This document shows, piece after piece, positions 31,750-53,160 of a DNA stretch of 64,000 nucleotides. Each line of letters starts with the position of its first letter. The stretch's first letter is position 1. The position numbers were made by a program, and so were the translations under genes. Source of the DNA: an uncultured Clostridia bacterium (GTDB taxonomy: Bacteria; Bacillota; Clostridia; Oscillospirales; Acutalibacteraceae); contig CALEIS010000135.1 in assembly GCA_937877675.1 (NCBI GenBank), forward strand, positions 173,557 through 237,556. Reading direction: 5' to 3'. The notes beneath the pieces were generated by a model that saw nothing but the letters and a program-made list of their open reading frames with translations, did not search any database and was not told where the DNA came from.

Positions 31750-31993
31750 AAGTTTGTAACTATCCCTCACCACAGGGAGAACCGTTTCATAAGTTCTTTA
31801 TCCTAGTTACTGAAGATTTAGATTACATCGTACATAGAAGTTTGACGTGGATGTAATCATCCCAATGAGTATGTTCCTTACTTGCCCCCTCATCGGTTAC
31901 TGGGGCGACTGCTCTTTATACATTATCAGGGGAAAGCAGAAAATCCTTTACTGATAAGGGATGAGTTGGTGGTGTCCTACTCATCACAGGAGA

Positions 31994-32065
31994 CAAGGCA
32001 TAGGGGAATTGAACCCCTGTTTAGGGAATGAAAATCCCTTGTCCTAACCACTAGACGAATGCCTC
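31994..32065 (-). tRNA. tRNA-Glu(UUC)
   Basis: gaggcat-tc-gtct-agtggtta-ggac. Anticodon arm aggga-ttttcat-tccct. 4-nt variable loop. Confidence 0.8.
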
Positions 32066-32141
32066 ATGTGTTTTTAACATCGCTGTCAATCTTCATTAGA
32101 GGGTTTTTATTTCCTCTTCACCTTTGGCAGGTGACAAGAAC

Positions 32142-32170: not shown

Positions 32171-32209
32171 GCACTTTTTGAAAGTTTTTTGAACTTTTTT
32201 CTTGAAAAA

Positions 32210-32281
32210 CACTCCATGCGGGATTTGAACCCACCTTCACGATTTTAGAGACCGTTGTCCTAACCACTAGACGAATGGAGC
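32210..32281 (-). tRNA. amber suppressor tRNA (anticodon CUA)
   Basis: gctccat-tc-gtct-agtggtta-ggac-a-acggt-CTCTAAA-atcgt-gaag-gtggg-ttcaaat-cccgc-atggagt-g. Canonical 7-nt loop with U33 and CUA at positions 34-36 (plus-strand tag at 32246-48). Confidence 0.8.
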
Positions 32282-32288
32282 ATGAAAG

Positions 32289-37833: not shown

Positions 37834-39981
37834 TTAGGCGTTATGATTCCAAACAGAACCTTCAGCAGGAGTTACTGTTACAGCAGTAGGAGCAGTAACC
37901 TGTACAGCAGGGCTGATTGGGAATGCATAGGAAGGAGCAGTACCAGTGGTTTCTGCATGAGCAGCATAACCGTTAGGATACATCTTATTGTCGTTCTGAA
38001 CACCAGGGTTGGAGAAGTCGTCAATAAGGATTACATGGTAGTAGAGGTGAGAACCGAAGATATTGTCCATTACACCGTAACGAGTCATAAGACCTACGTG
38101 TGGTGAGAAGGAGTTAGTATCGGTTGCAGTCTGAACCATGATAGGAATGTATGGGCAGTAAATGATACCTGCATCATACGTATCAGCACCCTTATAACCA
38201 AGCATACAATAGTTAGGAAGTTTAACTTCCTGCTCAGTTGTGTCGAACATATCGCCATAACCCATACCGTAGTCATCAGTGCTGTAAACGGCAGTTCTCT
38301 CATCAATGTAAACATTGAACTTGTTACCACCAAGAGTACCAGCAGCAGCGGTCTGAGCATTGTTAAGCTCGATGGTGTTGTTTACCTGCATAGGAACATA
38401 GTCCTCAAGCATCTGAAGAAGAGCAGCAACGTCAGGAGTACATACGATGAAGTTAGCAGCACCACGGTGGTTGCGAACACGCATTCTCATAGCCATCTTG
38501 ATAATGAACTGATAGAATGCACGAGCACGCTCACCCATCCAACGAGCGTCAGCGAGCTTACCAGACCATACAGACCATTCATTGTGCTTGAGAGCTGTGA
38601 AGAGCATACGAACAGTCATTTCACGGTCGATTTCAGCCTGAAGCTCATAGCTCATCTGCTGAGTAGCTTCGGTGTCGATGTCAATACCGTTGGTGTTCTT
38701 GAGGTCTTCCTGAGTTTCAAGTGTCCAAGAGGTTGAAAGTCTACGAGTACCAGCTTCAACAGCCTGCTTCTCGAAACCGAAGGAGGTACGAGCGATAGCA
38801 CCAGTAGCTTCAAAAGCATGAACGCGAGCAGCGATACCAGTATCCTCAAGACGGAACTGCCAACGACCACCTGCAAGAGGCTGGAGGAGTTGCTTGTCCT
38901 GAGCACCTGTGAAGCGGGTATCAAGACGCTGATAACCCATTTCAGAGTTACCCAAGTCCCACTTACCAGTTACTTCATTGAACTTGATGTCAGAAATCTG
39001 AACGTCACCCTTAGCAGGGTCAGAGATACCAACAATCTTAGTACCATCTGTAGCATCCTCTACACGCTTTTCAGCAGCAGTCTAAATTTTGTCAAGAAGT
39101 TCTGTCTCGGATGAATCAACACCACGCTGAGCAGCAACAACAACAGCTTCCTTAATCTTGGCTTCTGTGATGGTTGTAAGTGTAGCATAATCAACTTCAC
39201 CAATAATCTGTGTAAGAACAGGGTGAACGATGTACTTCTTATTCTTTTCAGAAGCAGCCTTTGTACTTACGAAAGCAGGGTTTGCAACGATTGCAGGGAA
39301 ACTCTGTGGGAAACCATTACCAACAACAGTTACAAGAGTAGCACTACCTTCGGCTGTTGAAGTAGCGTCAGTAATAGTAAGCTTAGCCTTGGTCTCTACA
39401 CCACGGATACCCTGAGCGGTATACTCAGTAGCAGCAGAACCATTGTATACAGTATCACGCTGAGCATATTCAGTTGTTTCACCAGAAACACGAGGACTGT
39501 GAACGTGCTCTGTGGAGCTGTCACCAAGAGCGTTAGCACCCTTGAGGTAACGATAACGGATAGCGAATGCAAGAGCTACAGGGCCAGGCATAGGCTGAAC
39601 ACCAACCGTTTCATTGCTCATAAGAGCAGGATAGATACGGCGAACCATAGGAAGAATAGTCGTTGGGTTACGCATGTCACCAGGAGCATAGAAGTCACTG
39701 TTGCCAAGCTCACCACCGTGAAGACCATTCTGAGGACCGAACATAGCGGTTGTCATTGCAGGACTGTTCTCATTGAGCCAACGCATCTGGTTCTCAAGAA
39801 GCATAGCGGTGTTGTTACGAACAGCCTTGGAGCGAATAGGAGCGAAACCAGCAGTACACTCAAGAAGCTCAGACCAGTTCTTTACTGCCTTGCGAGTACG
39901 CTGACCATTTTTCTGCGTCTGGGTAAGGCGAGCCTTAGGAGCAGCCTGTGCAGTACGCTTTGTTTTAGTAATAATAGCCAT
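37834..39981 (-). CDS. major capsid protein, T4 gp23-like, with one in-frame TAG
   Basis: Track ORFs 39082..39981 and 37834..38955 share a frame. They are joined through TAG 39082-84 with no other stop (..ELLDKI*TAAEKRVED..). The N-terminal part has gp23-type motifs LLENQ..WL, PMVRRIYPALMSNETVGVQPMPGPVALAFAIRY. Confidence 0.75.
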
Positions 39982-41982: not shown

Positions 41983-42052
41983 GTTATAATTTATTTATGA
42001 AATTTTGAAAAATATAGTTGACAAATGAACTCTAATGTGCTAGTCTTTATTC

Positions 42053-42760
42053 ATGCAAAACAACAAACATATTATTATGATGGGTGACAATAAGTCACTA
42101 TCTGCAATTTCTGAGAATATTCTTCTTCAATATATTCCTCAAGAAGTTCTTAGAGAAAATATCATTGATACCAACTTTCCAAATTATGAACTGTATACTC
42201 TTCTTGTAGGGAAAACATACGGACATGTAATTGAGAAGAAGATTATCAATGAGCGTTTTAGTGATACACTTCCAAGTGATAATTCTATTACCGATTACGA
42301 TGCAACTTGTAACAATTTGCGTATTGAAATAAAGTCTTCACGTGTTCTTCGTAATAATTCTACAAAACGTGAAGAACTTGGTTTATCATTTTGGGAAGAT
42401 GCTGCATCAATCAATGATAAGAAATATGAATGGTCTTCTCCTTGGCAACAGGTAAAGCCAACATATTGCGATTATTTTATTTTTCACGCATTATACAAGG
42501 ACGGTTCACGGTATTTTGTAGTACCTTCGAGATGCATTGCAAGCAATATCTATGAAGAATCATCTGATGTCATACGTCTTGGAAAACAACATCCATCACC
42601 TGATGAGGGGGTTGTAAACAATAACACTATTGCTAAAAAGAATGCTCACATTTTTGAAATCACAGATGACATTCTAAATCTTCAAGATGCAATCAATTTA
42701 GTGTAGGAACGTTTAAAGACTAATAGTCTAGTTCTACCAAAACCTAGAAAGAAGAAATAA
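42053..42760 (+). CDS. putative PD-(D/E)xK restriction endonuclease
   Basis: D...EIK motif (ITDYDATCNNLRIEIKSS). Convergent with a gamma-class methyltransferase. The ORF ends at TAG 42704 and TAA follows 17 codons later. Confidence 0.4.
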
Positions 42761-42775
42761 TTTTTAAAAAAAGAG

Positions 42776-42800
42776 GGTGGCTCATTTGAGCCACCTTTTT
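42776..42800. terminator. bidirectional hairpin between convergent genes
   Basis: ggtggctc-attt-gagccacc, flanked by an A-run and a T-run. Confidence 0.6.
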
Positions 42801-44185
42801 GGTATACTGAAATAGAACCTCTTATTATTCTTCTTTTTTTCTTTGTACCAATCACTCTTAGAGACTTTGATTATGTAATCAAATACTTTCTCATAAGGTT
42901 CATCAGTATTTTCTTTCCACCATTCCTTAAACTCATCTGTGAGATTATCTTCCAAATTATCAACAGGAACACATCTTGCAGCACCAGGTGATATATTACG
43001 GTTCACATCATAATCACAGAAACCAAAATAATCACCTGAGTTACTAGACGGATTACCTGAGAAGTAAAACGATTTACAAGGATTAGGATTTATCTGATAT
43101 ACGAATTCCTTTACATTCTTCAAACTATCATCTCTATAATACCAATCTACTTTATCTCCACGATTAGTTATAGGCTTATAGTAACTTTCGTCCTTAAGTC
43201 TGTCTAGTATATTTCTACCTTGGATTACCTTTACATAAGAAAGAATAATCTCCAACTTCTTCTGTACTGCTTCACTTTCAAATGGCTTGGAGAATACTTT
43301 CAAGTGAAACTTACCATTGTAACTAAGTCTATCATAAAGTGTCTCGATAGTAATATCATTGTCTGATATAATACTTACAAGTCTATTCTTGAAATGTTCT
43401 AAAGGCTCACCATGTACAGACATCAAAAGACTTTCACAAGGAACAGAACCAAGATATGTACTTTTGAATATTTCATTATAGACAAATTCATCCTTATTTT
43501 CCATGCAGAAATAATCTCTGAGATTAGTAATAGTACCATTTACCAAAGTTTCTGTTGTAGGCGTTTCATATGTATTGAAATGAATATACATCAAATCTTG
43601 AGCAACGCCATCGAATTCATCACCATTAATTTCCTCAATCTTTACAATTTTACACTTAGAAAGCATAAACTCTTTGAACTTGTTATAGAACTTAGAGTTA
43701 TTTTTGATAATAGAGTTAGGAAGAATATAGTGAATATCACCTTGAACTTTATTTGTATAAATGATGTCAAGTGTCTTGAGGATAAAGAATACACATTCTT
43801 CTCTAATACCACTAATGCCATACTTCTTCCTAAGAGCATGAACATATTCTTTATGTGTAGTGAGGGAATATGCAGGGGTTCGATAAGGAGGATTACCAAT
43901 AAAGATTATCTTCTTGTCAGTCTCCAATTCAAAATCATAGAAGTTTTTACAGATTGTATTAGGTGTGTTATACTTTTCAAATAACTCTTCATCCAATTCA
44001 ATACCTAAAACATCATCATACTTTTGTTCCATTAGTTTTAGAAAACTACCCTCACCATAAGAAGGTTCAATATAAATGGCATCTTCATTCTCAATACCAT
44101 CAATTATACTTTTAGATAATTCGTCAGGCGTAAAGAATTGACCAAATAAATTCTTCTTTCCTTGTACATTCTTCGCATCAATCAT
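42782..44185 (-). CDS. N6-adenine DNA methyltransferase (gamma class, TaqI/Eco57I-like)
   Basis: GQFFTP...EPSYGEGSF...FIGNPPY, with a large C-terminal recognition region. Confidence 0.75.
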   Translation of the reverse strand: MIDAKNVQGKKNLFGQFFTPDELSKSIIDGIENEDAIYIEPSYGEGSFLKLMEQKYDDVLGIELDEELFEKYNTPNTICKNFYDFELETDKKIIFIGNPPYRTPAYSLTTHKEYVHALRKKYGISGIREECVFFILKTLDIIYTNKVQGDIHYILPNSIIKNNSKFYNKFKEFMLSKCKIVKIEEINGDEFDGVAQDLMYIHFNTYETPTTETLVNGTITNLRDYFCMENKDEFVYNEIFKSTYLGSVPCESLLMSVHGEPLEHFKNRLVSIISDNDITIETLYDRLSYNGKFHLKVFSKPFESEAVQKKLEIILSYVKVIQGRNILDRLKDESYYKPITNRGDKVDWYYRDDSLKNVKEFVYQINPNPCKSFYFSGNPSSNSGDYFGFCDYDVNRNISPGAARCVPVDNLEDNLTDEFKEWWKENTDEPYEKVFDYIIKVSKSDWYKEKKKNNKRFYFSIPKRWLK

Positions 44186-44269
44186 GTATATATTTTACCA
44201 TAGTTCTATAAAACACAAAAGGCTTCCCAATAACTTAGGAAGCCAATGAATAAATTGTTTTCAGATAAA

Positions 44270-44740
44270 TTAGTCAACGATGCTAATAAAGTTATTACGC
44301 TTTTTAACAAGCCACTGTTTTTCTTTCATGTCGTATACAGCACATGACTTAGAATTAAGTGTGTTTCCTGAGTATGCCCATACCCAAATTCTTCTACCAC
44401 CTGTTGCAGCACTTGAAATTTCAAGTCTATATCTTCTGCCATCTGGAGTATTTCTGTATTCACCGTAACTATATTCACGACCGTTAGACTTACACAATGA
44501 TAAGAGGTCATTTATTGAAAATTGTTCTCTTTGAAGTGGAGCTTTACGAACAGGCTTACTTGTTACTTCTGCATCTCTCATCTACAAACCATAATTCTCA
44601 AGCAAATACTTGGCAGCTTCTTTCAATACATTTCTCATTGATAACTCAGACTTGGACTTTACTACCAAGTTCTTCTGAGGAAGTACACTCTCATTGAGTC
44701 TTCCACTTACTTTCTTAATCTTTACATTATACTCAAACAT
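44270..44740 (-). CDS. MFEYNV-family protein (paralogue 1) with TAG at the N-domain/C-domain junction
   Basis: MFEYNVKIKKVSGRLNESVLPQKNLVVKSK...ENYGL*MRDAEV... TAG at 44582-84. Both track ORFs are in the same frame. Confidence 0.6.
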
Positions 44741-44770
44741 ACGTATTCTTTTATTTATAAATAATTTCAC

Positions 44771-45235
44771 ATGGGTTCTCTCAATCTCAATAGAAATACA
44801 AATTATAAGCAAGGATTCTTTTATCCAAGAAATTTAGACAAGTTCGTTGGTAAAGAAAACAAAGCAATATATCGTAGTGGCTTAGAATTAGAATACTTTA
44901 GAATCCTTGACAAAAACCCTAATGTTTTGAAATGGGGTAGTGAAGAAGTGGTTGTACCTTACTTCTTTGAAAACAAATGGCACAAGTATTACGTAGACCT
45001 TTTTGTTGTATTCAAGTTTGGTGAATCAGTGAAGAAATACTTTATTGAACTTAAACCTTACTCACAGACGGTAGAACCAAAGGTGTCTAAAAGAAAGAAG
45101 CAAATGAGTATGTTGTATGAGGCTAAGCAGTGGGCAAAGAACCAAGCCAAGTGGAAAGCAGCCACAGATTACGCTAAAAAGAATGGATGGGAGTTTCACA
45201 TTCTTACTGAAAAAGACCTAGAGAATAGGAAATGA
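44771..45235 (+). CDS. TnsA-N/PD-(D/E)xK-like nuclease-fold protein
   Basis: YRSGLELEYFRILD...YYVDLFV...IELKP pattern. Confidence 0.45.
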   Translation: MGSLNLNRNTNYKQGFFYPRNLDKFVGKENKAIYRSGLELEYFRILDKNPNVLKWGSEEVVVPYFFENKWHKYYVDLFVVFKFGESVKKYFIELKPYSQTVEPKVSKRKKQMSMLYEAKQWAKNQAKWKAATDYAKKNGWEFHILTEKDLENRK

Positions 45236-45250
45236 TTGTAAATAATCCTA

Positions 45251-46036
45251 ATGAAAGAATTGACGATTATTTTACAGAAGATGTTGGGAGTGGATGCTGA
45301 TGGTGTAATAGGTTCACAGACATTAGCAGCCATTGCCACAGCATTAGGAGCAACGGTTTCTTCCTATAAGGCTACAACAATAAAGAATATTCAGAAGGCA
45401 GTAGGAGCTACTGCTGATGGTGTTATTGGTAGTAAGACATTGAATGCAATTATTAGTAAGTTGGGTAATGGTGTTATTAAGAAGCAAGAGGTAGACCCTC
45501 TTGTACAAAAGTACATTGACAAGCCTATCAAGTATACTGATGTGAATTATAAGTCATCCCTTGTAAAGCAGAGTGTATTGAGAAGTGGTAACAGTGTATT
45601 TGGTAAGGCAGGGTGTGAGAATATGTTAGTAAATGTTCCTGTTCCTGCTAATTATCCTCTCAAGTACGATGGTAAGCCTGTCAAGTCTATTAGAATTCAT
45701 AAACTTGTTGCAGATAGATTGGCAGCAGCTCTTCAAGATATTATCAATCACTATGGAGAAGATATTGAAAAGGTTGCTCCTGGTGCTTGTGTGTATGACG
45801 GTTCTTATAACTTCCGTCAGTCACGAAGTTCTTCATCTCAATCTGTTCACTCATGGGGCGTTGCTATTGACTTCGATGCAGGTAATAATACAATGAAGAT
45901 GACAGCTCCTAAAGCACGTCTTTCACAAGACATTTATAAACCTTTCTTTGACATCCTTGAATACCACGGTTTCAACTCTCTTGGTAGAAGAGGAGATTAC
46001 GATTGGATGCACGTTCAAGCAACCCATTGGGGCTAA
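45251..46036 (+). CDS. endolysin: two PG_binding_1 repeats + M15-type peptidase
   Basis: Two copies of DADGVIGSQTLAAI / ADGVIGSKTLNAI. C-terminal SVHSWGVAIDFD...DWMHVQ metallopeptidase motifs. Confidence 0.75.
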   Translation: MKELTIILQKMLGVDADGVIGSQTLAAIATALGATVSSYKATTIKNIQKAVGATADGVIGSKTLNAIISKLGNGVIKKQEVDPLVQKYIDKPIKYTDVNYKSSLVKQSVLRSGNSVFGKAGCENMLVNVPVPANYPLKYDGKPVKSIRIHKLVADRLAAALQDIINHYGEDIEKVAPGACVYDGSYNFRQSRSSSSQSVHSWGVAIDFDAGNNTMKMTAPKARLSQDIYKPFFDILEYHGFNSLGRRGDYDWMHVQATHWG

Positions 46037-46050
46037 TAAAATTTTAGACA

Positions 46051-46085
46051 AAAAAACCCACTACTAATAATGTAGTGGGTTTTTT
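46051..46085. terminator. bidirectional terminator
   Basis: acccactac-taataat-gtagtgggt, flanked by A and T runs. Confidence 0.7.
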
Positions 46086-46089
46086 GTGA

Positions 46090-46479
46090 TTATCTAATGA
46101 ACTTTTCGTAATTATCACCTATTGTTTTGCCATCTTGTCCATATGGAATTCGCTTCAAAGACAAGATTGCAGTTTGCATTTCGTGAAGTAGTGCATTTAT
46201 TGTGCTTCCATCATATTCTCCTGTCTCGATGGACTTTGACATTTTATTGATTATTGATAATGATTTGAAGTATTGATTCTTAAAAGAATCGTCAACCATT
46301 TCCACATCAGCACTTTCAATTACGAGACCATACTTTTCCTTATAGAACTTGGAAGCCTCAGCAAATACTTCTTTATCAGACTTTTCCGTCTTGGACTTTA
46401 CAACCAAACTCTTGGAAGGCATTGCACTCTCATTGAGAGAACCACTCACTTTTTGAACTTTTACATTGTACTTGAACAT
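46090..46479 (-). CDS. MFEYNV-family protein (paralogue 2)
   Basis: MFKYNVKVQKVSGSLNESAMPSKSLVVKSK...KEKYGLVIE, plus a unique C-terminus. Confidence 0.6.
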   Translation of the reverse strand: MFKYNVKVQKVSGSLNESAMPSKSLVVKSKTEKSDKEVFAEASKFYKEKYGLVIESADVEMVDDSFKNQYFKSLSIINKMSKSIETGEYDGSTINALLHEMQTAILSLKRIPYGQDGKTIGDNYEKFIR

Positions 46480-46493
46480 AATCTTTCAATTAT

Positions 46494-46682
46494 TTATCCC
46501 TCAATGTACATCACAAAATCAAACATGTCCTTAACTTTATTCTCATGTAGAGCACTCATGAAGTTTCTACGAACATAAGCCTCTGCATTATTGAAATCAC
46601 GAAGCAGTCTTCCGTAAAAACCCTGAGACTGAGCAAGTGAAACCAACCAACTACGAACTTCTTTCTGAGTGAGCTTCTTCAT
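46494..46682 (-). CDS. hypothetical small protein
   Basis: Start at MKKLTQKEV, 9 nt from TATAAT. Confidence 0.45.
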   Translation of the reverse strand: MKKLTQKEVRSWLVSLAQSQGFYGRLLRDFNNAEAYVRRNFMSALHENKVKDMFDFVMYIEG

Positions 46683-46691
46683 GACACGGAC

Positions 46692-46720
46692 ATTATACAA
46701 AAATTCTAATCTTTTGTCAA
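46692..46720 (-). promoter_or_regulatory. TTGACA-N17-TATAAT promoter cassette
   Basis: attata at 46692-97 and tgtcaa at 46715-20. Confidence 0.7.
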
Positions 46721-46958
46721 GTTAATTTTGAAACTTTTTTCAATTATTTTTCATCATTTTCGTAACGAAAGCCATAAGTGATTTATTTTCAAGTAGTTCG
46801 ACCAAATGGGATTTTTGAGGTTTTATTTGTAAATAGAAGTAGAGAACTAGGAAAACTGGTCGCTCTAAACAAAACAAACATAACAAAACAAACACGAAAC
46901 ACACATGGTAGTAAGTCTACCAAACACAAACATAACACAATAGAAAGACACAATAACT

Positions 46959-47729
46959 ATGGAATTCAGTAATCCAATGATGACGATGCCTGTCACTACG
47001 GCAGGAGATGCTTACGGTAACGGTAACAACGTATGGAACAACCCATTTATGTATTTGATATGGCTTGCCATTTTCAGACAGGGTGGGTTCTTCGGAAACG
47101 GCACAGACCCTAATGTTGCAGGTCAAACATTAAACTCTGCACAGGTTGATGCCATCCGTGATACAGTTGCTCAGATTCATTCCGATGTAAACTGCGGTAA
47201 TGCAAATGGTATGAGAATACTCGACCAGATTGCTAATGATGCTAGAGCACTTGGCGTTGCTATAACTGATGTAAGCGGAAACATTTGTGATGCTAAAACT
47301 GCTATCCTCGGAGCACTCACTAACATCGCATTCCAATCCTCACAGGAAACAGCAAGTATTGTTGCTGCTGTAAAAGATTGTTGCTGCGCTACACAGAATA
47401 AGTTAGACATGCTCGGATGCAGTATTGAGAAGGGTATTCTCAATCAGACCATCGCAATGAACAACGGCTTCACTACATTAGGTAATGGTATCAGTAACTT
47501 GGGCTTCCAACTCGCTCAGCAAGACTGTGGTATCAAACAGTTGATTGCTAGTGAAGGTTGCGCCACAAGACAGTTGATGCGTGACCTCCATACAGAAGAT
47601 ATTATCACCCAGAAGAATACGCAAATCGCTGACTTGCAGGGTCAAATCTTCAAGTATTCACAGGCTGCTCAGACCGCTGAGATTATCAACGCTCTCAAGA
47701 CAACTACTACCACAACTACTACACCCTAA
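46959..47729 (+). CDS. hypothetical protein (Cys-containing, poly-Thr tail)
   Basis: 256-aa ORF with a TAA stop. Confidence 0.55.
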   Translation: MEFSNPMMTMPVTTAGDAYGNGNNVWNNPFMYLIWLAIFRQGGFFGNGTDPNVAGQTLNSAQVDAIRDTVAQIHSDVNCGNANGMRILDQIANDARALGVAITDVSGNICDAKTAILGALTNIAFQSSQETASIVAAVKDCCCATQNKLDMLGCSIEKGILNQTIAMNNGFTTLGNGISNLGFQLAQQDCGIKQLIASEGCATRQLMRDLHTEDIITQKNTQIADLQGQIFKYSQAAQTAEIINALKTTTTTTTTP

Positions 47730-47809
47730 CCTATAACTGAGGGAGTGTGAGAATGTTAGAGTTCTCCACTCCCTCTTTTGCATAACCAATAGAAAGGAAA
47801 TAAGGAAAT

Positions 47810-48283
47810 ATGATACCTACTCAACCTTATTCACCACATCCATTATTGCCTATACCTCCTATGCCTGATGATGTTGTAAAAACAATCAGAAAACATGTAG
47901 ATGATAGACTTGATGAAGTAATGGCAGGTAAAGACGAGAAGTTATACCACGAATTTGAGAAATATATTTGTCACATCCTTGAAAAGCATAAGAAAACTTG
48001 CTACAAGCATGATGACGATGAAAGTCTTACTTATAAAAAATCACCAATGGAAGCACTTTACTGCACTCTTCACAAACATCAGAAATGTATTCATGAAGGT
48101 AAGTCTATGATGGAAGTAGAACACGAAATTTGGAAAGAGCATGATTTATGCCCTGAAGAAAAACGAGTTCTCGCTTCTCTTCTCAGAGCAGACGGCCCTT
48201 ACACTTTAGCAGGAATGATTGGTATGCCTTATGAAACTTATATTGAGTTCATGGGCAAACTAGGTGAACGCTTTGTAGATTAA
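47810..48283 (+). CDS. hypothetical protein
   Basis: 157-aa ORF. A terminator follows. Confidence 0.55.
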   Translation: MIPTQPYSPHPLLPIPPMPDDVVKTIRKHVDDRLDEVMAGKDEKLYHEFEKYICHILEKHKKTCYKHDDDESLTYKKSPMEALYCTLHKHQKCIHEGKSMMEVEHEIWKEHDLCPEEKRVLASLLRADGPYTLAGMIGMPYETYIEFMGKLGERFVD

Positions 48284-48305
48284 TAACTTAACCATAAATG
48301 TATTG

Positions 48306-48336
48306 GGGCTGACCAATAAAGGTCAGCCCTTTTTTA
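48306..48336 (+). terminator. rho-independent terminator
   Basis: gggctgacc-aataaa-ggtcagccc followed by tttttt. Confidence 0.7.
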
Positions 48337-49062
48337 TTACATTCTTTTATCGTTATTCTTCAAGTTTCTAAACTCTACCTTGAATGTTGTTTCAATCAAA
48401 TCCTCTGTTCTAAATCTTCTAGGACTTTGATTTACATTTCCTAATGTCTCAGGGCATTCGTTGAAGAATTGGAAATAATGAGTTCCTTTATAACCCCACT
48501 TCTCTAATTCTTTTAGAATTTTATTAGCCTTTTCCTCATTGGTAATCTCAGGGTGAATTGTAGTTCTTGTCTCAAACGGAACATTATTACTAATCATGTA
48601 TTCAAGTAACTGTTCCATATGCCATCTAAGCATACTGTTACCGTGGAACTTCAAGTATTCATTAGGAAGGTCAGGGTATTTGTAGTCCAAGGCTACATAA
48701 TCTATCAATCCGTCCTCAATCATCTCAATAACCAAGTTAGGATTAGAACCATTAGTATCTACCTTTACCTTGAACCCTTGCTCTTTACACCACTTCGCAC
48801 TGTCAATTAGATAGTCTCTGTGGAGGGTACATTCACCACCACTGAATACTACATAATCAATGAGATTCTTACGAGAGAGAAGATAATCCTTTATCTCTTG
48901 TGGGTTTAACTCAGGAAGTTGCCCTTTCCATAATTGAACATTATAACAATAGCCACATCGGAAATTACATCTGCTGCTAAACAGAACACAAGATGTATAA
49001 CCTCTCATGTCAATCATGGAAAGTTTCTCCACACCACATACTTTACTAAACACATTACTCAT
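48337..49062 (-). CDS. nrdG: anaerobic ribonucleotide reductase activating protein (radical SAM)
   Basis: CNFRCGYCYN (CxxxCxxC) near the N-terminus. Size and context fit NrdG. Confidence 0.75.
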   Translation of the reverse strand: MSNVFSKVCGVEKLSMIDMRGYTSCVLFSSRCNFRCGYCYNVQLWKGQLPELNPQEIKDYLLSRKNLIDYVVFSGGECTLHRDYLIDSAKWCKEQGFKVKVDTNGSNPNLVIEMIEDGLIDYVALDYKYPDLPNEYLKFHGNSMLRWHMEQLLEYMISNNVPFETRTTIHPEITNEEKANKILKELEKWGYKGTHYFQFFNECPETLGNVNQSPRRFRTEDLIETTFKVEFRNLKNNDKRM

Positions 49063-50024
49063 ACTTTTCTCTTTATTAGAATTCTTGTATAAAGTGCTTT
49101 TCTATCGAGAACAGGGCCTCTTGTTCTCAAAACTTTGCCACTTTTTTCTTCGTATTCTGCATTTTCACCACAGATAAATCCGTTCACATAATCACTTTGA
49201 GAAAACCTATTGAAAATTCCTACAATTTCAAATAAATCCTCTCTCTGCCTATCAATGTAAGTAACAGGAACTCCCATCAGACCATCATAATCAACAGGGA
49301 TGTCTTTACTGTTTTTCACATGAATAGCATCCAAGTTATCATACTTAGGATAATCTTTTTCATTATAATGACATACAGGTTCAATTCCTTTATTATCTTG
49401 TGAGATGTCAAAGTTAGTATACCACCTTACACCATCCACTCTGATGTATTTTACACCTTTTTCATCTATTCTACTTGCCTTTTCACTTAAAGGATAATCA
49501 TCAGGAACTCTAAACTCCCTGTCACCACTATGTATTGAGACACCAAGTCTCACCTCATTTCTCTTGAAATATGGAAACACTTCCTTTGTCACCACTCCTT
49601 TATTCGTTCCAAGAGTAATGAACTTCTTACCGTGTTCCATAATCAACTTCAAATGTTGTCTGAATAAAGAGAATGGAGGATTAGTAACAACTATATCACA
49701 TTGCTTCAAAAACTCAATACATTCTTCACTTCTGAAATCTCCATTACCTTTCATTACAGTTAGTTGCATTTCATCTTTATTGATGTCCTCTAATGTACCA
49801 TGAGGATAAGAAGTACAGATAAGACGCTTCAACCCTAACTTATCAAAATTATCAAAGAAGTATTTTCTAAAATTAGAATAGTGGTCGTCACAGTTGCAAT
49901 ATACAGTTTTATCCTTGAAGAAATGAGTATAATACTTCATTTCTTTTTCAATATCTTCATACGAAGTATAAAATTCATCTGCCTTTCTTCTTTTGGCATC
50001 ATTTAATGTATTTCTAGTTCCCAT
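49059..50024 (-). CDS. adenine-specific DNA methyltransferase (EcoRI-methylase-like)
   Basis: ADEFYTSYEDIEKE...VYCNCDD...VVTNPPFSLF. Confidence 0.7.
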   Translation of the reverse strand: MGTRNTLNDAKRRKADEFYTSYEDIEKEMKYYTHFFKDKTVYCNCDDHYSNFRKYFFDNFDKLGLKRLICTSYPHGTLEDINKDEMQLTVMKGNGDFRSEECIEFLKQCDIVVTNPPFSLFRQHLKLIMEHGKKFITLGTNKGVVTKEVFPYFKRNEVRLGVSIHSGDREFRVPDDYPLSEKASRIDEKGVKYIRVDGVRWYTNFDISQDNKGIEPVCHYNEKDYPKYDNLDAIHVKNSKDIPVDYDGLMGVPVTYIDRQREDLFEIVGIFNRFSQSDYVNGFICGENAEYEEKSGKVLRTRGPVLDRKALYTRILIKRKV

Positions 50025-50881
50025 TATTCGTATCTATCTAACTCCAAGAATTTACTAATACTCAATGCAAACACTTCACAACCATTACGCTCAAAGTGTG
50101 CATCTTCGTGATAGTGACCGTTGAACCAATACTTAGGATTGAACTTGGCAATGATTTTATCAATGTTCTCACGTTCTTCCTCAATAGTTTCTTTCAAACC
50201 CTTGGGGAATTTCTTGTTAGGTTGCCAGAAGTCACCCTCTTTCTCACGGATTGCCCAGTTCTCTACAAAGTGTGACTTCATACATTCAGGAGGTGTCGGC
50301 CCACTATGAGCAAATACTCCGTAAAATTCAGATGCTTCCATCTTATCATACAAATCATACTTCATGTATTCGTCATCCCAATAAGTGAAGCCTAATACAC
50401 GATGTCTACCACTTCTGTCAATGGAGATAGAACCAGGAACTACGAGATAACGCTTACCATTATGACTAATAACAGTATCGCCATCTCTTAAACAATGGAT
50501 ATTATCAAACCAATCCCACAACTTACTATCTTCTGCGTACTTGGAAGGGTCATCATGATTACCTCTGAATACCCATACATCATTGTTGTTACCCTTTGCC
50601 CACTTATCCAATTCCTTCAACCACTTTACATCACCATAAGGCTTATAATCACTATCTTTGTAATCATACCGATAAAATCCTACACCAATGTCTCCAAGGA
50701 TGATGATGTCTGTATTCTCGAAACCACCACACTTATCAACACTATCAAAAAATCCTTTGTGCTCCTCTTCATCTCTAAGGCAACCATGAATATCACCACA
50801 GAGTAAGCACATGTCATGTTTAAGTTCGTATTCCATAATAAAAGAAAAAGGCGTAAAGTTTCCCTTACGCCCATTATACAT
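50024..50881 (-). CDS. calcineurin-like metallophosphoesterase
   Basis: CGDIHGC, LGDIGVG, RGNHDDP and GHYH. Confidence 0.7.
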   Translation of the reverse strand: MYNGRKGNFTPFSFIMEYELKHDMCLLCGDIHGCLRDEEEHKGFFDSVDKCGGFENTDIIILGDIGVGFYRYDYKDSDYKPYGDVKWLKELDKWAKGNNNDVWVFRGNHDDPSKYAEDSKLWDWFDNIHCLRDGDTVISHNGKRYLVVPGSISIDRSGRHRVLGFTYWDDEYMKYDLYDKMEASEFYGVFAHSGPTPPECMKSHFVENWAIREKEGDFWQPNKKFPKGLKETIEEERENIDKIIAKFNPKYWFNGHYHEDAHFERNGCEVFALSISKFLELDRYE

Positions 50882-50897
50882 TAGTTCTTATAAATTG

Positions 50898-51494
50898 TCA
50901 ACCGTAAGTGTAATAAATGTTACCATTTTTTGCTTGAGTGAAATAAATCTGTACATCGTTAGCATTCATCTCACCGTTTGATTCTTGGACAGTATCAATT
51001 ACGAAATTCTTCCATTCATCTTTACCTCTCCAATTATCATTAGCCATCTCAAGCACTTGTTCAAAATCGTAGTCAGTTACATCTTCACCACAAACTTCTG
51101 CCCAACCATCGAATACCTCTTTTTCGAGTGTCTCCAATTGAACATACTTATTAGCAAAGTCAATGTCTGCTTCTTCGATATAGCCACCTCTCTTAATCCA
51201 AGAAGGGCCGTGAGCATCAGCAATCTCTCTTTCCTTACCATAAATGTCAGAAGGATTGTTATGACCATTGATTACGATTTGTTCGCCATCTACCATCTCA
51301 TAGACAATAGGACTGTCAATTGCAGCTTGCTCTAATACGAGATTGTACTTTTCCTTGAGGTATTCACTCACCTTATCGAATGCCTCTTGCTCAGAAAGAA
51401 CTTTTTTAGATTTTACTACAAATGATTCTTTAGGAGTTGCACTTTCCGTCAATACTCCACTAACCTTTAGAATTGTAATATTATACTCAAACAT
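50898..51494 (-). CDS. MFEYNV-family protein (paralogue 3)
   Basis: MFEYNITILKVSGVLTESATPKESFVVKSK...KEKYNLVLE, plus a unique C-terminus. Confidence 0.6.
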   Translation of the reverse strand: MFEYNITILKVSGVLTESATPKESFVVKSKKVLSEQEAFDKVSEYLKEKYNLVLEQAAIDSPIVYEMVDGEQIVINGHNNPSDIYGKEREIADAHGPSWIKRGGYIEEADIDFANKYVQLETLEKEVFDGWAEVCGEDVTDYDFEQVLEMANDNWRGKDEWKNFVIDTVQESNGEMNANDVQIYFTQAKNGNIYYTYG

Positions 51495-51499
51495 AACCA

Positions 51500-52117
51500 T
51501 TAATAATAACTTGTTCCACTTTGAGGTTTACCATCCCACAATGTTGCATACATGTAAGATTTGATTTTGCAACCAGGTCTTCCACTCCAATCAGAAATCT
51601 TTCTTCTAAATGGCTGAGCACCTTCTACAGGTTCAGGAGTAGGAACACATGTGTAATGTCCCCAATGCTTACCATCTTCCTTTCTCTGTGACTTTACCTT
51701 TATCAATGTAACAGAAGTATCTGTCATTTTCAACACTTTGAAGAAATCAATATTGGTCTGCTCATAACCCCAATCAGCTACAAAGTATTGTGGCTCAGCA
51801 GTTTGTGTGGGCTATTCCTTTACCTTATTCTTTGAACCAGCAGGTCTACCTCTTCTCTTAGCAGTAGGCTTATTGAAAGAAGCTCCACCTTGAGTATTCC
51901 CTGTTGTTACATTACTTGGCTCTTCATTGTCAAATCCACTTACTGAGAATTCTTCTACAACCAAACCATACTTCTGCTCATAGAAATTTGCCACCTTGTT
52001 ATACAAAGTGTTCTCATCAAGTTGTGACTTGCTCTTTACTACAAGATTTTTATTAGGGAGTACACTTTCCGTCAATACTCCACTAACTTTTCTAATTTCA
52101 ACTTTATACTCGAACAT
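51500..52117 (-). CDS. MFEYNV-family protein (paralogue 4) with TAG before the C-terminal domain
   Basis: MFEYKVEIRKVSGVLTESVLPNKNLVVKSK...SKNKVKE*PTQTAEPQYF... TAG at 51812-14. Track ORFs 51812.. and 51500.. share a frame with no other stop between them. Confidence 0.6.
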
Positions 52118-52128
52118 GTTGAAATTAT

Positions 52129-53160
52129 TTATTCAACTGTACTGAGTAATCTGTTGTGAAATCTTAGATAATCTCCTACTGTAATGCCATTATCAAAACA
52201 TAAAGTATTGAGCATGTTTGTGATTCTCTCTCCCTTGGTGTATCTCACCCCCTTTGGAATCTCTTTATCTGTCAAGAAATCCTCACACTTCTTCACCCAT
52301 CTGTTAATCTCATCGTAACCAATAGGCTGCTCACTCTTCTTATAGATACCATATAACTCCGCAAGTTCAGTATACTTCTCTAAGTATTTCTCTTTCAAAG
52401 CCTTCCATCTCTTGTTGATAATGGCATAAGGAATACCTGCAACATAGAATACATAACCCTCTACTTCACAACCCTTTACATCAATCTTTCCATTGATAAG
52501 AGACTTGGAACTCTCAGCCAATTTGTCAAGTAGATTAGGAATATCTGACAATTCACAATTCTTGGGAATGTCAACTACTGTATCAATGTCCTCAGTAGGA
52601 ATCATCTCATCAATGAGGTAACACTTAAAACCTTTGTCAGCAGTAATTGTAAAGTACGTCTGAAGTTCTTTCAAAACGAAGTCAACATCCTCATCTTCAA
52701 CATTACCCTTGAACTTACGAATAACAACAGCACCCTTTTTGCCCATACGAACCTTATGATACTTGGTAGCTACTATGGTAACAGTATTGTCAGCATCATA
52801 GTATTCTTGAGGAGCATAAATCAACTCACCCTCAAACTCAAAAGCACCATACTTACGCTTCATCTTCAAAAGTTCCATGAGCATGTGCGTCTGTAAGTGT
52901 TCTACAAGAGCTTGGTGACTAGGTTCTCTGCTAATGTTATCATACTCACCTCTTGCAGTTTTGATAAGGATTCTGTTATCATCTCCTACCTTGACTGCAA
53001 AACATTGACCATCAATCTTTTCAGTAACTCCACCTCCAATACCAAGGGTAAGAAGGTGAAGTTCCTTACGGTTATCAATAAGTCGTGGTTTGAATTGAGT
53101 TCTCAAACGCTTACGACTTACCTTATTCATCTTTATTGTAGAAATTTTATTCATTTGCAA
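52129..53160 (-). CDS. ATP-dependent RNA/DNA ligase-like nucleotidyltransferase
   Basis: Motif I KxDG (GVTEKIDGQCF). Confidence 0.5.
   Translation of the reverse strand: MQMNKISTIKMNKVSRKRLRTQFKPRLIDNRKELHLLTLGIGGGVTEKIDGQCFAVKVGDDNRILIKTARGEYDNISREPSHQALVEHLQTHMLMELLKMKRKYGAFEFEGELIYAPQEYYDADNTVTIVATKYHKVRMGKKGAVVIRKFKGNVEDEDVDFVLKELQTYFTITADKGFKCYLIDEMIPTEDIDTVVDIPKNCELSDIPNLLDKLAESSKSLINGKIDVKGCEVEGYVFYVAGIPYAIINKRWKALKEKYLEKYTELAELYGIYKKSEQPIGYDEINRWVKKCEDFLTDKEIPKGVRYTKGERITNMLNTLCFDNGITVGDYLRFHNRLLSTVE

Follow-up and report, generated by a model that had tools for sequence, protein, structure and literature searches.

In the window, the 64,000-nucleotide stretch of phage DNA analyzed here, four genes on the reverse strand encode proteins that share an N-terminal domain (N-domain) and carry different C-terminal domains (C-domains). 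Two of these genes, genes 1 and 4, contain an in-frame TAG codon. A first-pass annotation had read these TAGs as a built-in switch between a short and a long isoform. We consider it probable that both TAGs are sense codons, that genes 1 and 4 each encode a single two-domain polypeptide and that no isoform switch has been selected. The TAGs belong to a known class of recoded phage codons. New are the N-domain family, the fusion of this domain to the anti-restriction protein ArdA in the slot of gene 4, and the association with a TAAATAA motif. The genes and their TAGs are as follows (pLDDT, predicted local distance difference test; ORF, open reading frame).

44270-44740, reverse strand: gene 1, 156 codons, family member with TAG (AlphaFold mean pLDDT 83; 21 full-length relatives without interruption)
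44582-44584, reverse strand: in-frame TAG at codon 53 of gene 1, falling within predicted strand 3 (residues 52-59); Glu codon (GAG or GAA) in relatives
46090-46479, reverse strand: gene 2, 129 amino acids, without TAG (ORF and N-domain alignment)
50898-51494, reverse strand: gene 3, 198 amino acids, without TAG, second gene of the gene 4-gene 3 unit (ORF and alignment)
51500-52117, reverse strand: gene 4, 205 codons, with TAG (AlphaFold model and match to phrog_37844)
51812-51814, reverse strand: in-frame TAG at codon 102 of gene 4, in the last part of a disordered linker; kept in the related genomes L016, L026, L049, L053 and L057

Genes 1 and 4 and their TAG codons

All four genes start with MF(E/K)YN..., as the first-pass annotation had described. 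Their first 55 residues align without a gap, with 18 invariant columns and 47-58% identity, and the whole 2.08-Mb bin holds N-domain copies in these four genes only. Beyond about residue 60 the four sequences show no relationship, which confirms the complete divergence reported earlier. The shared domain had been thought to end at ...YGL. Alignment and AlphaFold models extend it to about residue 59-62, and it forms a beta-beta-alpha-beta unit of ~60 residues.

The window is part of contig C135 (254,361 bp, 36% G+C), which is a T4-type gut phage with TAG read as sense. By a crude ORF call, on which the counts for this contig rest, 631 in-frame TAGs fall in 110 of 303 ORFs. One lies in the gene for the major capsid protein Gp23 (37834-39981), one gene of the window has 32 and its neighbor 15, and reading TAG as sense restores long ORFs. 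A tRNA for this codon sits within a 29-gene tRNA array:

32209-32282, reverse strand: phage tRNA with anticodon CUA, decodes TAG (ARAGORN)

In-frame TAGs in many genes, essential ones included, together with a phage tRNA-CUA are what code 15-type recoding is recognized by. TAG-recoded gut phages are a known phenomenon (Borges et al., bioRxiv 10.1101/2021.08.26.457843; Peters et al. 2022, PMC9523058). As far as the accessible text of these reports goes, their phages resemble ours in the concentration of TAGs in large structural genes, in having their own tRNA-CUA, in the fragmentation of genes under standard-code calling and in the interchange of TAG with CAG or CAA in relatives. Our phage differs in being T4-like (Gp23 capsid protein, S77 protease) with 254 kb, and in a suppressor with a tRNA-Glu-like body. 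A proposal that TAGs at domain boundaries act as isoform switches was not found in the same text.

In gene 1, the frame stays open for 103 more codons past the TAG, to a TAA, as had been noted before. The AlphaFold model shows strands at residues 2-13 and 24-29, a helix at 35-50 and a strand at 52-59. These form the N-domain (1-59), which is followed by a basic linker of weaker confidence and a confident, beta-rich C-domain (72-154). The TAG had been placed exactly before the C-terminal part; it lies instead within the last N-domain strand, 19 residues ahead of the C-domain. Since codon 53 is inside this strand, a product of 52 amino acids would be an incomplete domain without strand 3. A search with the 103-residue C-terminal part returned 26 proteins, of which 21 are full-length (154-160 amino acids). 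All 21 continue as ...ENYGL-E-(MR or LG)-DAEV... and none has a TAG, where the window reads ...ENYGL-X-MRDAEVTSK... (X = TAG). At the DNA level, the relatives L014 and L015 have TTG GAG ATG and L010 has GAA TTG, against TTG TAG ATG in the window; GAG or GAA is found in relatives with up to 96% protein identity. Given the Glu codon GAG in L014 and L015, the TAG arose by one G-to-T change. To judge from this comparison, it is a private, recent point change of the window's lineage.

In gene 4, the frame is likewise open past the TAG, for 103 more codons to a TAA. Its AlphaFold model comprises the N-domain (1-62), a disordered stretch (64-105, pLDDT <50) and a C-domain (108-205, pLDDT ~90) with its first strand at 111-116. 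The TAG had been described as following a basic linker right before the C-terminal part; the codon falls within the end of a 42-residue disordered linker, and the first strand of the C-domain comes nine residues later. The sequence around the TAG is ...VKE-X-PTQTAEPQYFVADWGYEQTNIDFFK... (X = TAG). Residues 100-204 match positions 97-201 of phrog_37844, its C-terminal half (E 3e-12; function unknown), and the C-terminal part resembles phage proteins of ~190 amino acids such as Paraglaciecola phage GD1 gp122 (BLASTP E 2e-13). C-domains of this family carry the motifs WGYEQTNIDF...ATLWDGKP; in the first of them W, G, Q, T, N and D are invariant in the family alignment. In the window, WGYEQTNIDF follows the TAG and comes before the earliest available start codon (GTG at 51736). 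Since this motif and the first C-domain strand precede any ATG, GTG or TTG, the C-domain needs the TAG to be decoded. The linker itself contains KRRGRPAGSK (residues 89-98; 51818-51853, reverse strand), an AT-hook-like segment with an RGRP core, which hints at binding of the DNA minor groove.

These data bear on the possibility that TAG is a true stop and each locus consists of two genes, one for the N-domain only and one for an independently started downstream protein. The TAG-ATG sequence of gene 1 would allow termination and reinitiation, standard-code callers split the loci into 103-residue, or 101- plus 75-residue, products, and stand-alone proteins of 101 amino acids occur among the distant fold relatives of this C-domain of gene 4. 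However, the 21 full-length gene-1 relatives are all fused, many of them without the Met; the ATG is older than the TAG in some lineages, and many others lack it (ELG variants). Gene 4 has no start codon ahead of WGYEQTNIDF and the first domain strand, and the essential capsid gene is itself read through a TAG, while a single gene of the window contains 32. Downstream segments with their own starts, as independent genes, were looked for and not found. Two separate genes per locus are therefore highly improbable, and the earlier claim that the long forms require decoding of the TAG is borne out by both the continuous gene-1 relatives and the position of the gene-4 C-domain.

The gene-4 TAG was followed through its relatives. 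The codons flanking it vary among the genomes that keep it (GAA, GAG or GAT before; CCC or CCT and ACA or GTA after). A cluster look-up by exact sequence gave 44 and 18 members, mostly called as 101 plus 75 amino acids because standard-code callers break the gene at the TAG. The continuous 205-residue orthologues P0193 and P0204, ~80% identical, read ...GSKGKSVEAAPKRQKAQYFVANWGYEQ..., with Ala at codon 102, and the TAG is present only in the clade with at least 90% identity. Thus the TAG is a feature of one young clade and not of the gene. In the sister genomes, codons ~70-205 have diverged much less than either the N-domain or gene 3, which indicates that linker and C-domain spread recently as a module with its 5' junction upstream of the TAG; the TAG would travel with this module. 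The frame in L016 survives a replacement 42 nucleotides longer: in L016:6357-7015, compared with 51500-52117 of the window, the middle of the C-domain (a predicted loop region) has been swapped in frame for an unrelated segment 14 codons longer, and the rest is ~97% identical. A C-domain in L019 and L020 was tried as a relative of the gene-4 C-domain and set aside as suggestive only (hhalign probability 64%).

Decoding of TAG and timing of expression

Next to the gene-4 TAG, the only in-frame TAG in ~30 family genes of relatives read at the DNA level is codon 244 of an ArdA fusion in L054, and none of the ~30 other members has a TAG near the domain boundary. At six sites in the TnsA-like, endolysin-like, 274-residue and NrdD genes, relatives have TAG and the window has CAG or CAA. 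This exchange in neighboring genes is the behavior of a neutral sense codon and favors Gln. Of the window's TAGs compared with relatives, two align with GAG or GAA, one with an AAG-type Lys codon and one with AGA. The TAGs of genes 1 and 4 are most likely ordinary sense codons that would be read as Gln. The phage tRNA-CUA would read both, and each gene would give one two-domain polypeptide. The TAGs would have arisen by drift at sites tolerant of change, a conserved-Glu strand position in gene 1 and the disordered linker in gene 4. Other routes to the decoded residue were uninformative: the internal paralogues and a 30%-identical relative are too divergent, no Pfam family was available for aligning the TAG-rich genes, and position 480 of NrdD (TAG in a relative) is in a variable loop. 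Codon 244 of the L054 fusion (L054:7479-8336) is a TAG where two sister ArdA fusions have Trp (TGG). It fits neither Gln nor Glu; the protein may be truly truncated there, or the change may be tolerated.

If the TAGs were nonsense lesions, the genes would be decaying, gene 1 above all with its conserved Glu codon turned into TAG. That change is non-synonymous if TAG encodes Gln, and the L054 fusion with TAG in place of Trp would fit as well. Against this, the downstream frames are intact, and 103 codons without TAA or TGA would occur by chance with an estimated probability of ~0.005 at this base composition. The downstream parts fold confidently in the models, and the six genomes show neither frameshifts nor TAA or TGA downstream of the TAG. 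Since the phage suppresses TAG genome-wide, a TAG is not in itself a lesion, and decay is very improbable.

The upstream regions of the family genes contain a recurrent motif:

44751-44757, reverse strand: TAAATAA motif, 11-17 nucleotides upstream of the gene 1 ATG (motif search)
46490-46497, reverse strand: ATAAATAA motif upstream of gene 2 (motif search)
52125-52131, reverse strand: TAAATAA upstream of gene 4, overlapping the TAA stop of a ligase-like gene (motif search)
44211-44244, reverse strand: intrinsic-terminator-like hairpin (44244-44221) and T run after gene 1 (sequence)

A further TAAATAA lies upstream of 41982 (reverse strand). On contig C135, (A/C/G)TAAATAA lies 11-17 nucleotides upstream of 60 ORF starts, compared with 2.3 expected (~26-fold). 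It precedes 17 of 39 genes with at least five TAGs and 43 of 264 others (Fisher p = 3e-4). Of all TAGs, 77% fall in units led by the motif, which account for 60% of the codons. Leaving aside genes in second place of a two-gene unit, every family gene checked (23 in all) carries the motif, as does the S77 protease gene. TAAATAA contains the T4 late promoter core; the exact T4 late promoter TATAAATA was not enriched (4 found, 5.8 expected). The family genes would thus be made from the motif class of TAG-rich operons, presumably late, when the suppressor is present. If TAAATAA is a signal of late expression, a short isoform would not be produced early, which argues against the early short-form phase of the first-pass annotation. 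Gene 1 has a single upstream motif and a single terminator-like hairpin and nothing at the TAG; it is predicted to be a single transcription unit. Between gene 3 and a metallophosphoesterase gene, we also observed a perfect sigma-70 consensus promoter (12/12, TTGACA-17-TATAAT; 50901-50873, reverse strand), directly followed by a terminator-like hairpin (50872-50849, reverse strand).

With these results the isoform switch can be weighed. In a programmed switch, host release factor 1 would stop at the TAG early and leave a functional short protein, the suppressor would later allow the long form, and selection would keep the TAG. A model of regulation by code switching exists in the literature (bioRxiv 10.1101/2021.08.26.457843). 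By the models, the gene-4 short product of 101 amino acids would be a complete N-domain with the AT-hook-like linker, and a 105-residue form in another lineage ends nearby. The gene-1 product of 52 amino acids, in contrast, would lack strand 3, since the TAG cuts the N-domain inside a strand and is private to the window's lineage. Programmed read-through would need a conserved stop at the junction. Such a stop was seen in none of the 21 gene-1 relatives, and for gene 4 only within the clade of at least 90% identity, with Ala in the ~80% identical orthologues. Together with the ~30 family members without a boundary TAG and the motif class heading TAG-rich operons, this leaves a selected switch unsupported, and we regard it as improbable.

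Several observations nevertheless weigh against parts of the preferred reading. All six close genomes and most of the 62 cluster members keep the gene-4 TAG although its flanks vary, which could reflect selection and not short divergence. The 105-residue forms P0191 and P0069 end after ...EPKR, four codons beyond the TAG, at a site that is Gln in P0193; the linker of this other lineage may carry a second TAG of independent origin. TAAATAA also stands ahead of 29 TAG-free genes. A promoter this close to the ATG would give nearly leaderless transcripts, and the motif may instead be a signal for translation. The tRNA-CUA has positions 6-27 (the whole D-arm) and the G1-U72 pair in common with tRNA-Glu(UUC) (31992-32066, reverse strand) and is unlike the phage tRNA-Gln. 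Such a tRNA-Glu-like suppressor, together with the two window TAGs at Glu codons, leaves the inserted residue as Gln or Glu. Finally, actual read-through and the timing of expression are what we infer from sequence.

The N-domain family and its C-terminal modules

Structure prediction and profile searches, the check proposed with the first-pass annotation, showed the N-domain to be a folded domain with a family far beyond chance. The profile search gave 123 representatives at 50% identity, of which ~114 are real; the nine giant top matches are eukaryotic FN3 repeats and spurious. In nearly all of the ~114, the domain begins at residue 1 or a few residues from it; the full proteins have 39 to 384 amino acids. 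The N-domain has no Pfam match and no PHROG family. By these searches it is undescribed and heads a large modular family (~114 clusters) in T4-like gut phages of ~250 kb. Each protein would consist of the conserved ~60-residue N-domain from residue 1, a linker and an interchangeable C-terminal module. The C-domain of gene 3 is strongly acidic (isoelectric point 4.1, net charge -19), and those of genes 1 and 4 are basic (isoelectric point 9.9 for gene 1). Gene 2 has a near-identical orthologue in L022; its slot in L012 holds a 208-residue member with another C-domain.

Exchange of modules is best seen after the ligase-like gene, the place of genes 4 and 3 in the window. Ten sister genomes (L048-L057) were fetched with the 58-residue NrdD tail as an exact handle. 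Elsewhere, no close phage was found in INPHARED. IMG/VR scans with the gene-1 C-terminal part, the N-domain alignment and the TAG-rich neighbor gave no relatives, a scan with the gene-4 C-terminal part gave the distant relatives L006-L009 only, and neither two GTDB genome scans nor a family search of 400 genomes yielded a match. The family member in this slot differs among the sisters: L049, L053 and L057 have the gene-4 type, L048, L050, L055 and L056 a module 'SAWGRGVK...WKQASEGGSWLIY' of no assigned family, and L051 (8654-9523), L052 (7474-8331) and L054 (7479-8336) an N-domain fused directly to ArdA. The slot is a hypervariable cassette site. With Pfam PF07275 (cut-off 27 bits), the fusions of L051 and L052 reach 46.5 and 44.7 bits, both match the anti-restriction protein family phrog_2059, and their only sequence match in the PDB is Tn916 ArdA (Orf18, PDB 2w82); the L054 call rests on a precomputed Pfam listing. 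Otherwise, ArdA is generally known as a protein that stands alone.

The ArdA fusion and the hypervariable slot make a modular anti-defence family the best reading, in which the family would deliver varied anti-defence or host-interaction modules. For the window's own four C-domains we give such a role about an even chance. These differ from the L051, L052 and L054 modules in having no match to ArdA (PF07275) and, which speaks against the role and apart from the gene-4 match to phrog_37844, none to any known family or anti-defence protein in Pfam or PHROG. Foldseek searches of the PDB with the gene 1 and gene 4 models likewise gave nothing significant, and a BFVD structure search returned only relatives of the gene-4 C-domain, all uncharacterised.

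The surroundings of gene 1 vary as well. In relatives, the gene for the S77 prohead protease adjoins gene 1, as in L010:1483-2693, where gene 1 is directly upstream on the same strand. In the window, a 467-residue methyltransferase gene and a 241-residue gene with two TAGs are inserted between the two (42035-44185). L012 carries an IS605 OrfB/TnpB-like gene between an endolysin-like gene and the gene-1 orthologue (L012:13917-15179), and an intein with a LAGLIDADG domain inside nrdD (L012:686-4753).

Comparison with virion-delivered proteins

One conceivable role of the N-domain is that of a head-loading module (capsid or ejection targeting) of T4-like jumbo phages, which would pack interchangeable anti-defence cargo for co-injection. 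We hold this to be unlikely. The cargo would be ArdA in the sisters, and in the window an acidic, DNA-mimic-like module and two basic, DNA-binding-like ones. Sense TAGs and the late-type TAAATAA would confine synthesis to the assembly phase, a genetic-code lock on timing.

In T4, the short leader of the internal proteins has ~10 residues and is removed by the prohead protease. Rao and Black (2010, PMC3012670, citing Repoila et al. 1994) describe the internal proteins IPI, IPII and IPIII as highly diverse defence proteins with only a capsid targeting sequence in common. The likeness lies in a conserved N-terminal leader on otherwise unrelated, variable proteins at polymorphic loci, in the anti-restriction function of at least one member (IPI*), with ArdA fused in relatives here, and in the position of the genes near the head-gene module. 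The leader here differs in being a folded domain of 60 residues without a consistent cleavage motif, and Pfam and PHROG profile searches gave no sequence similarity between the window's family and the T4 proteins. A prohead-protease site, (L/I)-x-E, at the N-domain end was considered and dropped: the acidic residues are in a strand and their position is not fixed (E55 in most, E53/D56 in gene 1).

A second comparison is offered by the MuF-fused effectors among the polyvalent proteins, for which Iyer et al. (2017, PMC5512222) describe a conserved, virion-associated N-terminal domain with swapped effectors, ArdA among them, thought to be delivered with the DNA. Here too one N-terminal domain is combined with swapped effector domains. 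The present N-domain differs in not being MuF/SPP1 gp7 and in having no Pfam match, and the proteins in being small (129-300 amino acids), with one effector each and several paralogues per genome. The family perhaps works like the T4 internal proteins or the MuF effectors, without homology to either.

In summary, the attractive idea of TAGs as isoform switches at domain boundaries is cleared away for these genes, and sister genomes offer a way to test such ideas. The exchange of TAG with CAG and GAG bears on the residue inserted by a tRNA-Glu-like suppressor. An undescribed N-domain carries swappable modules, a bona fide ArdA among them, in widespread gut jumbo phages. If the head-loading reading were true, the family would parallel the T4 internal-protein system, with a structured domain in the role of the leader. 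As a virion-loading tag, the N-domain would point to dozens of new anti-defence proteins and provide a handle for packaging foreign proteins.

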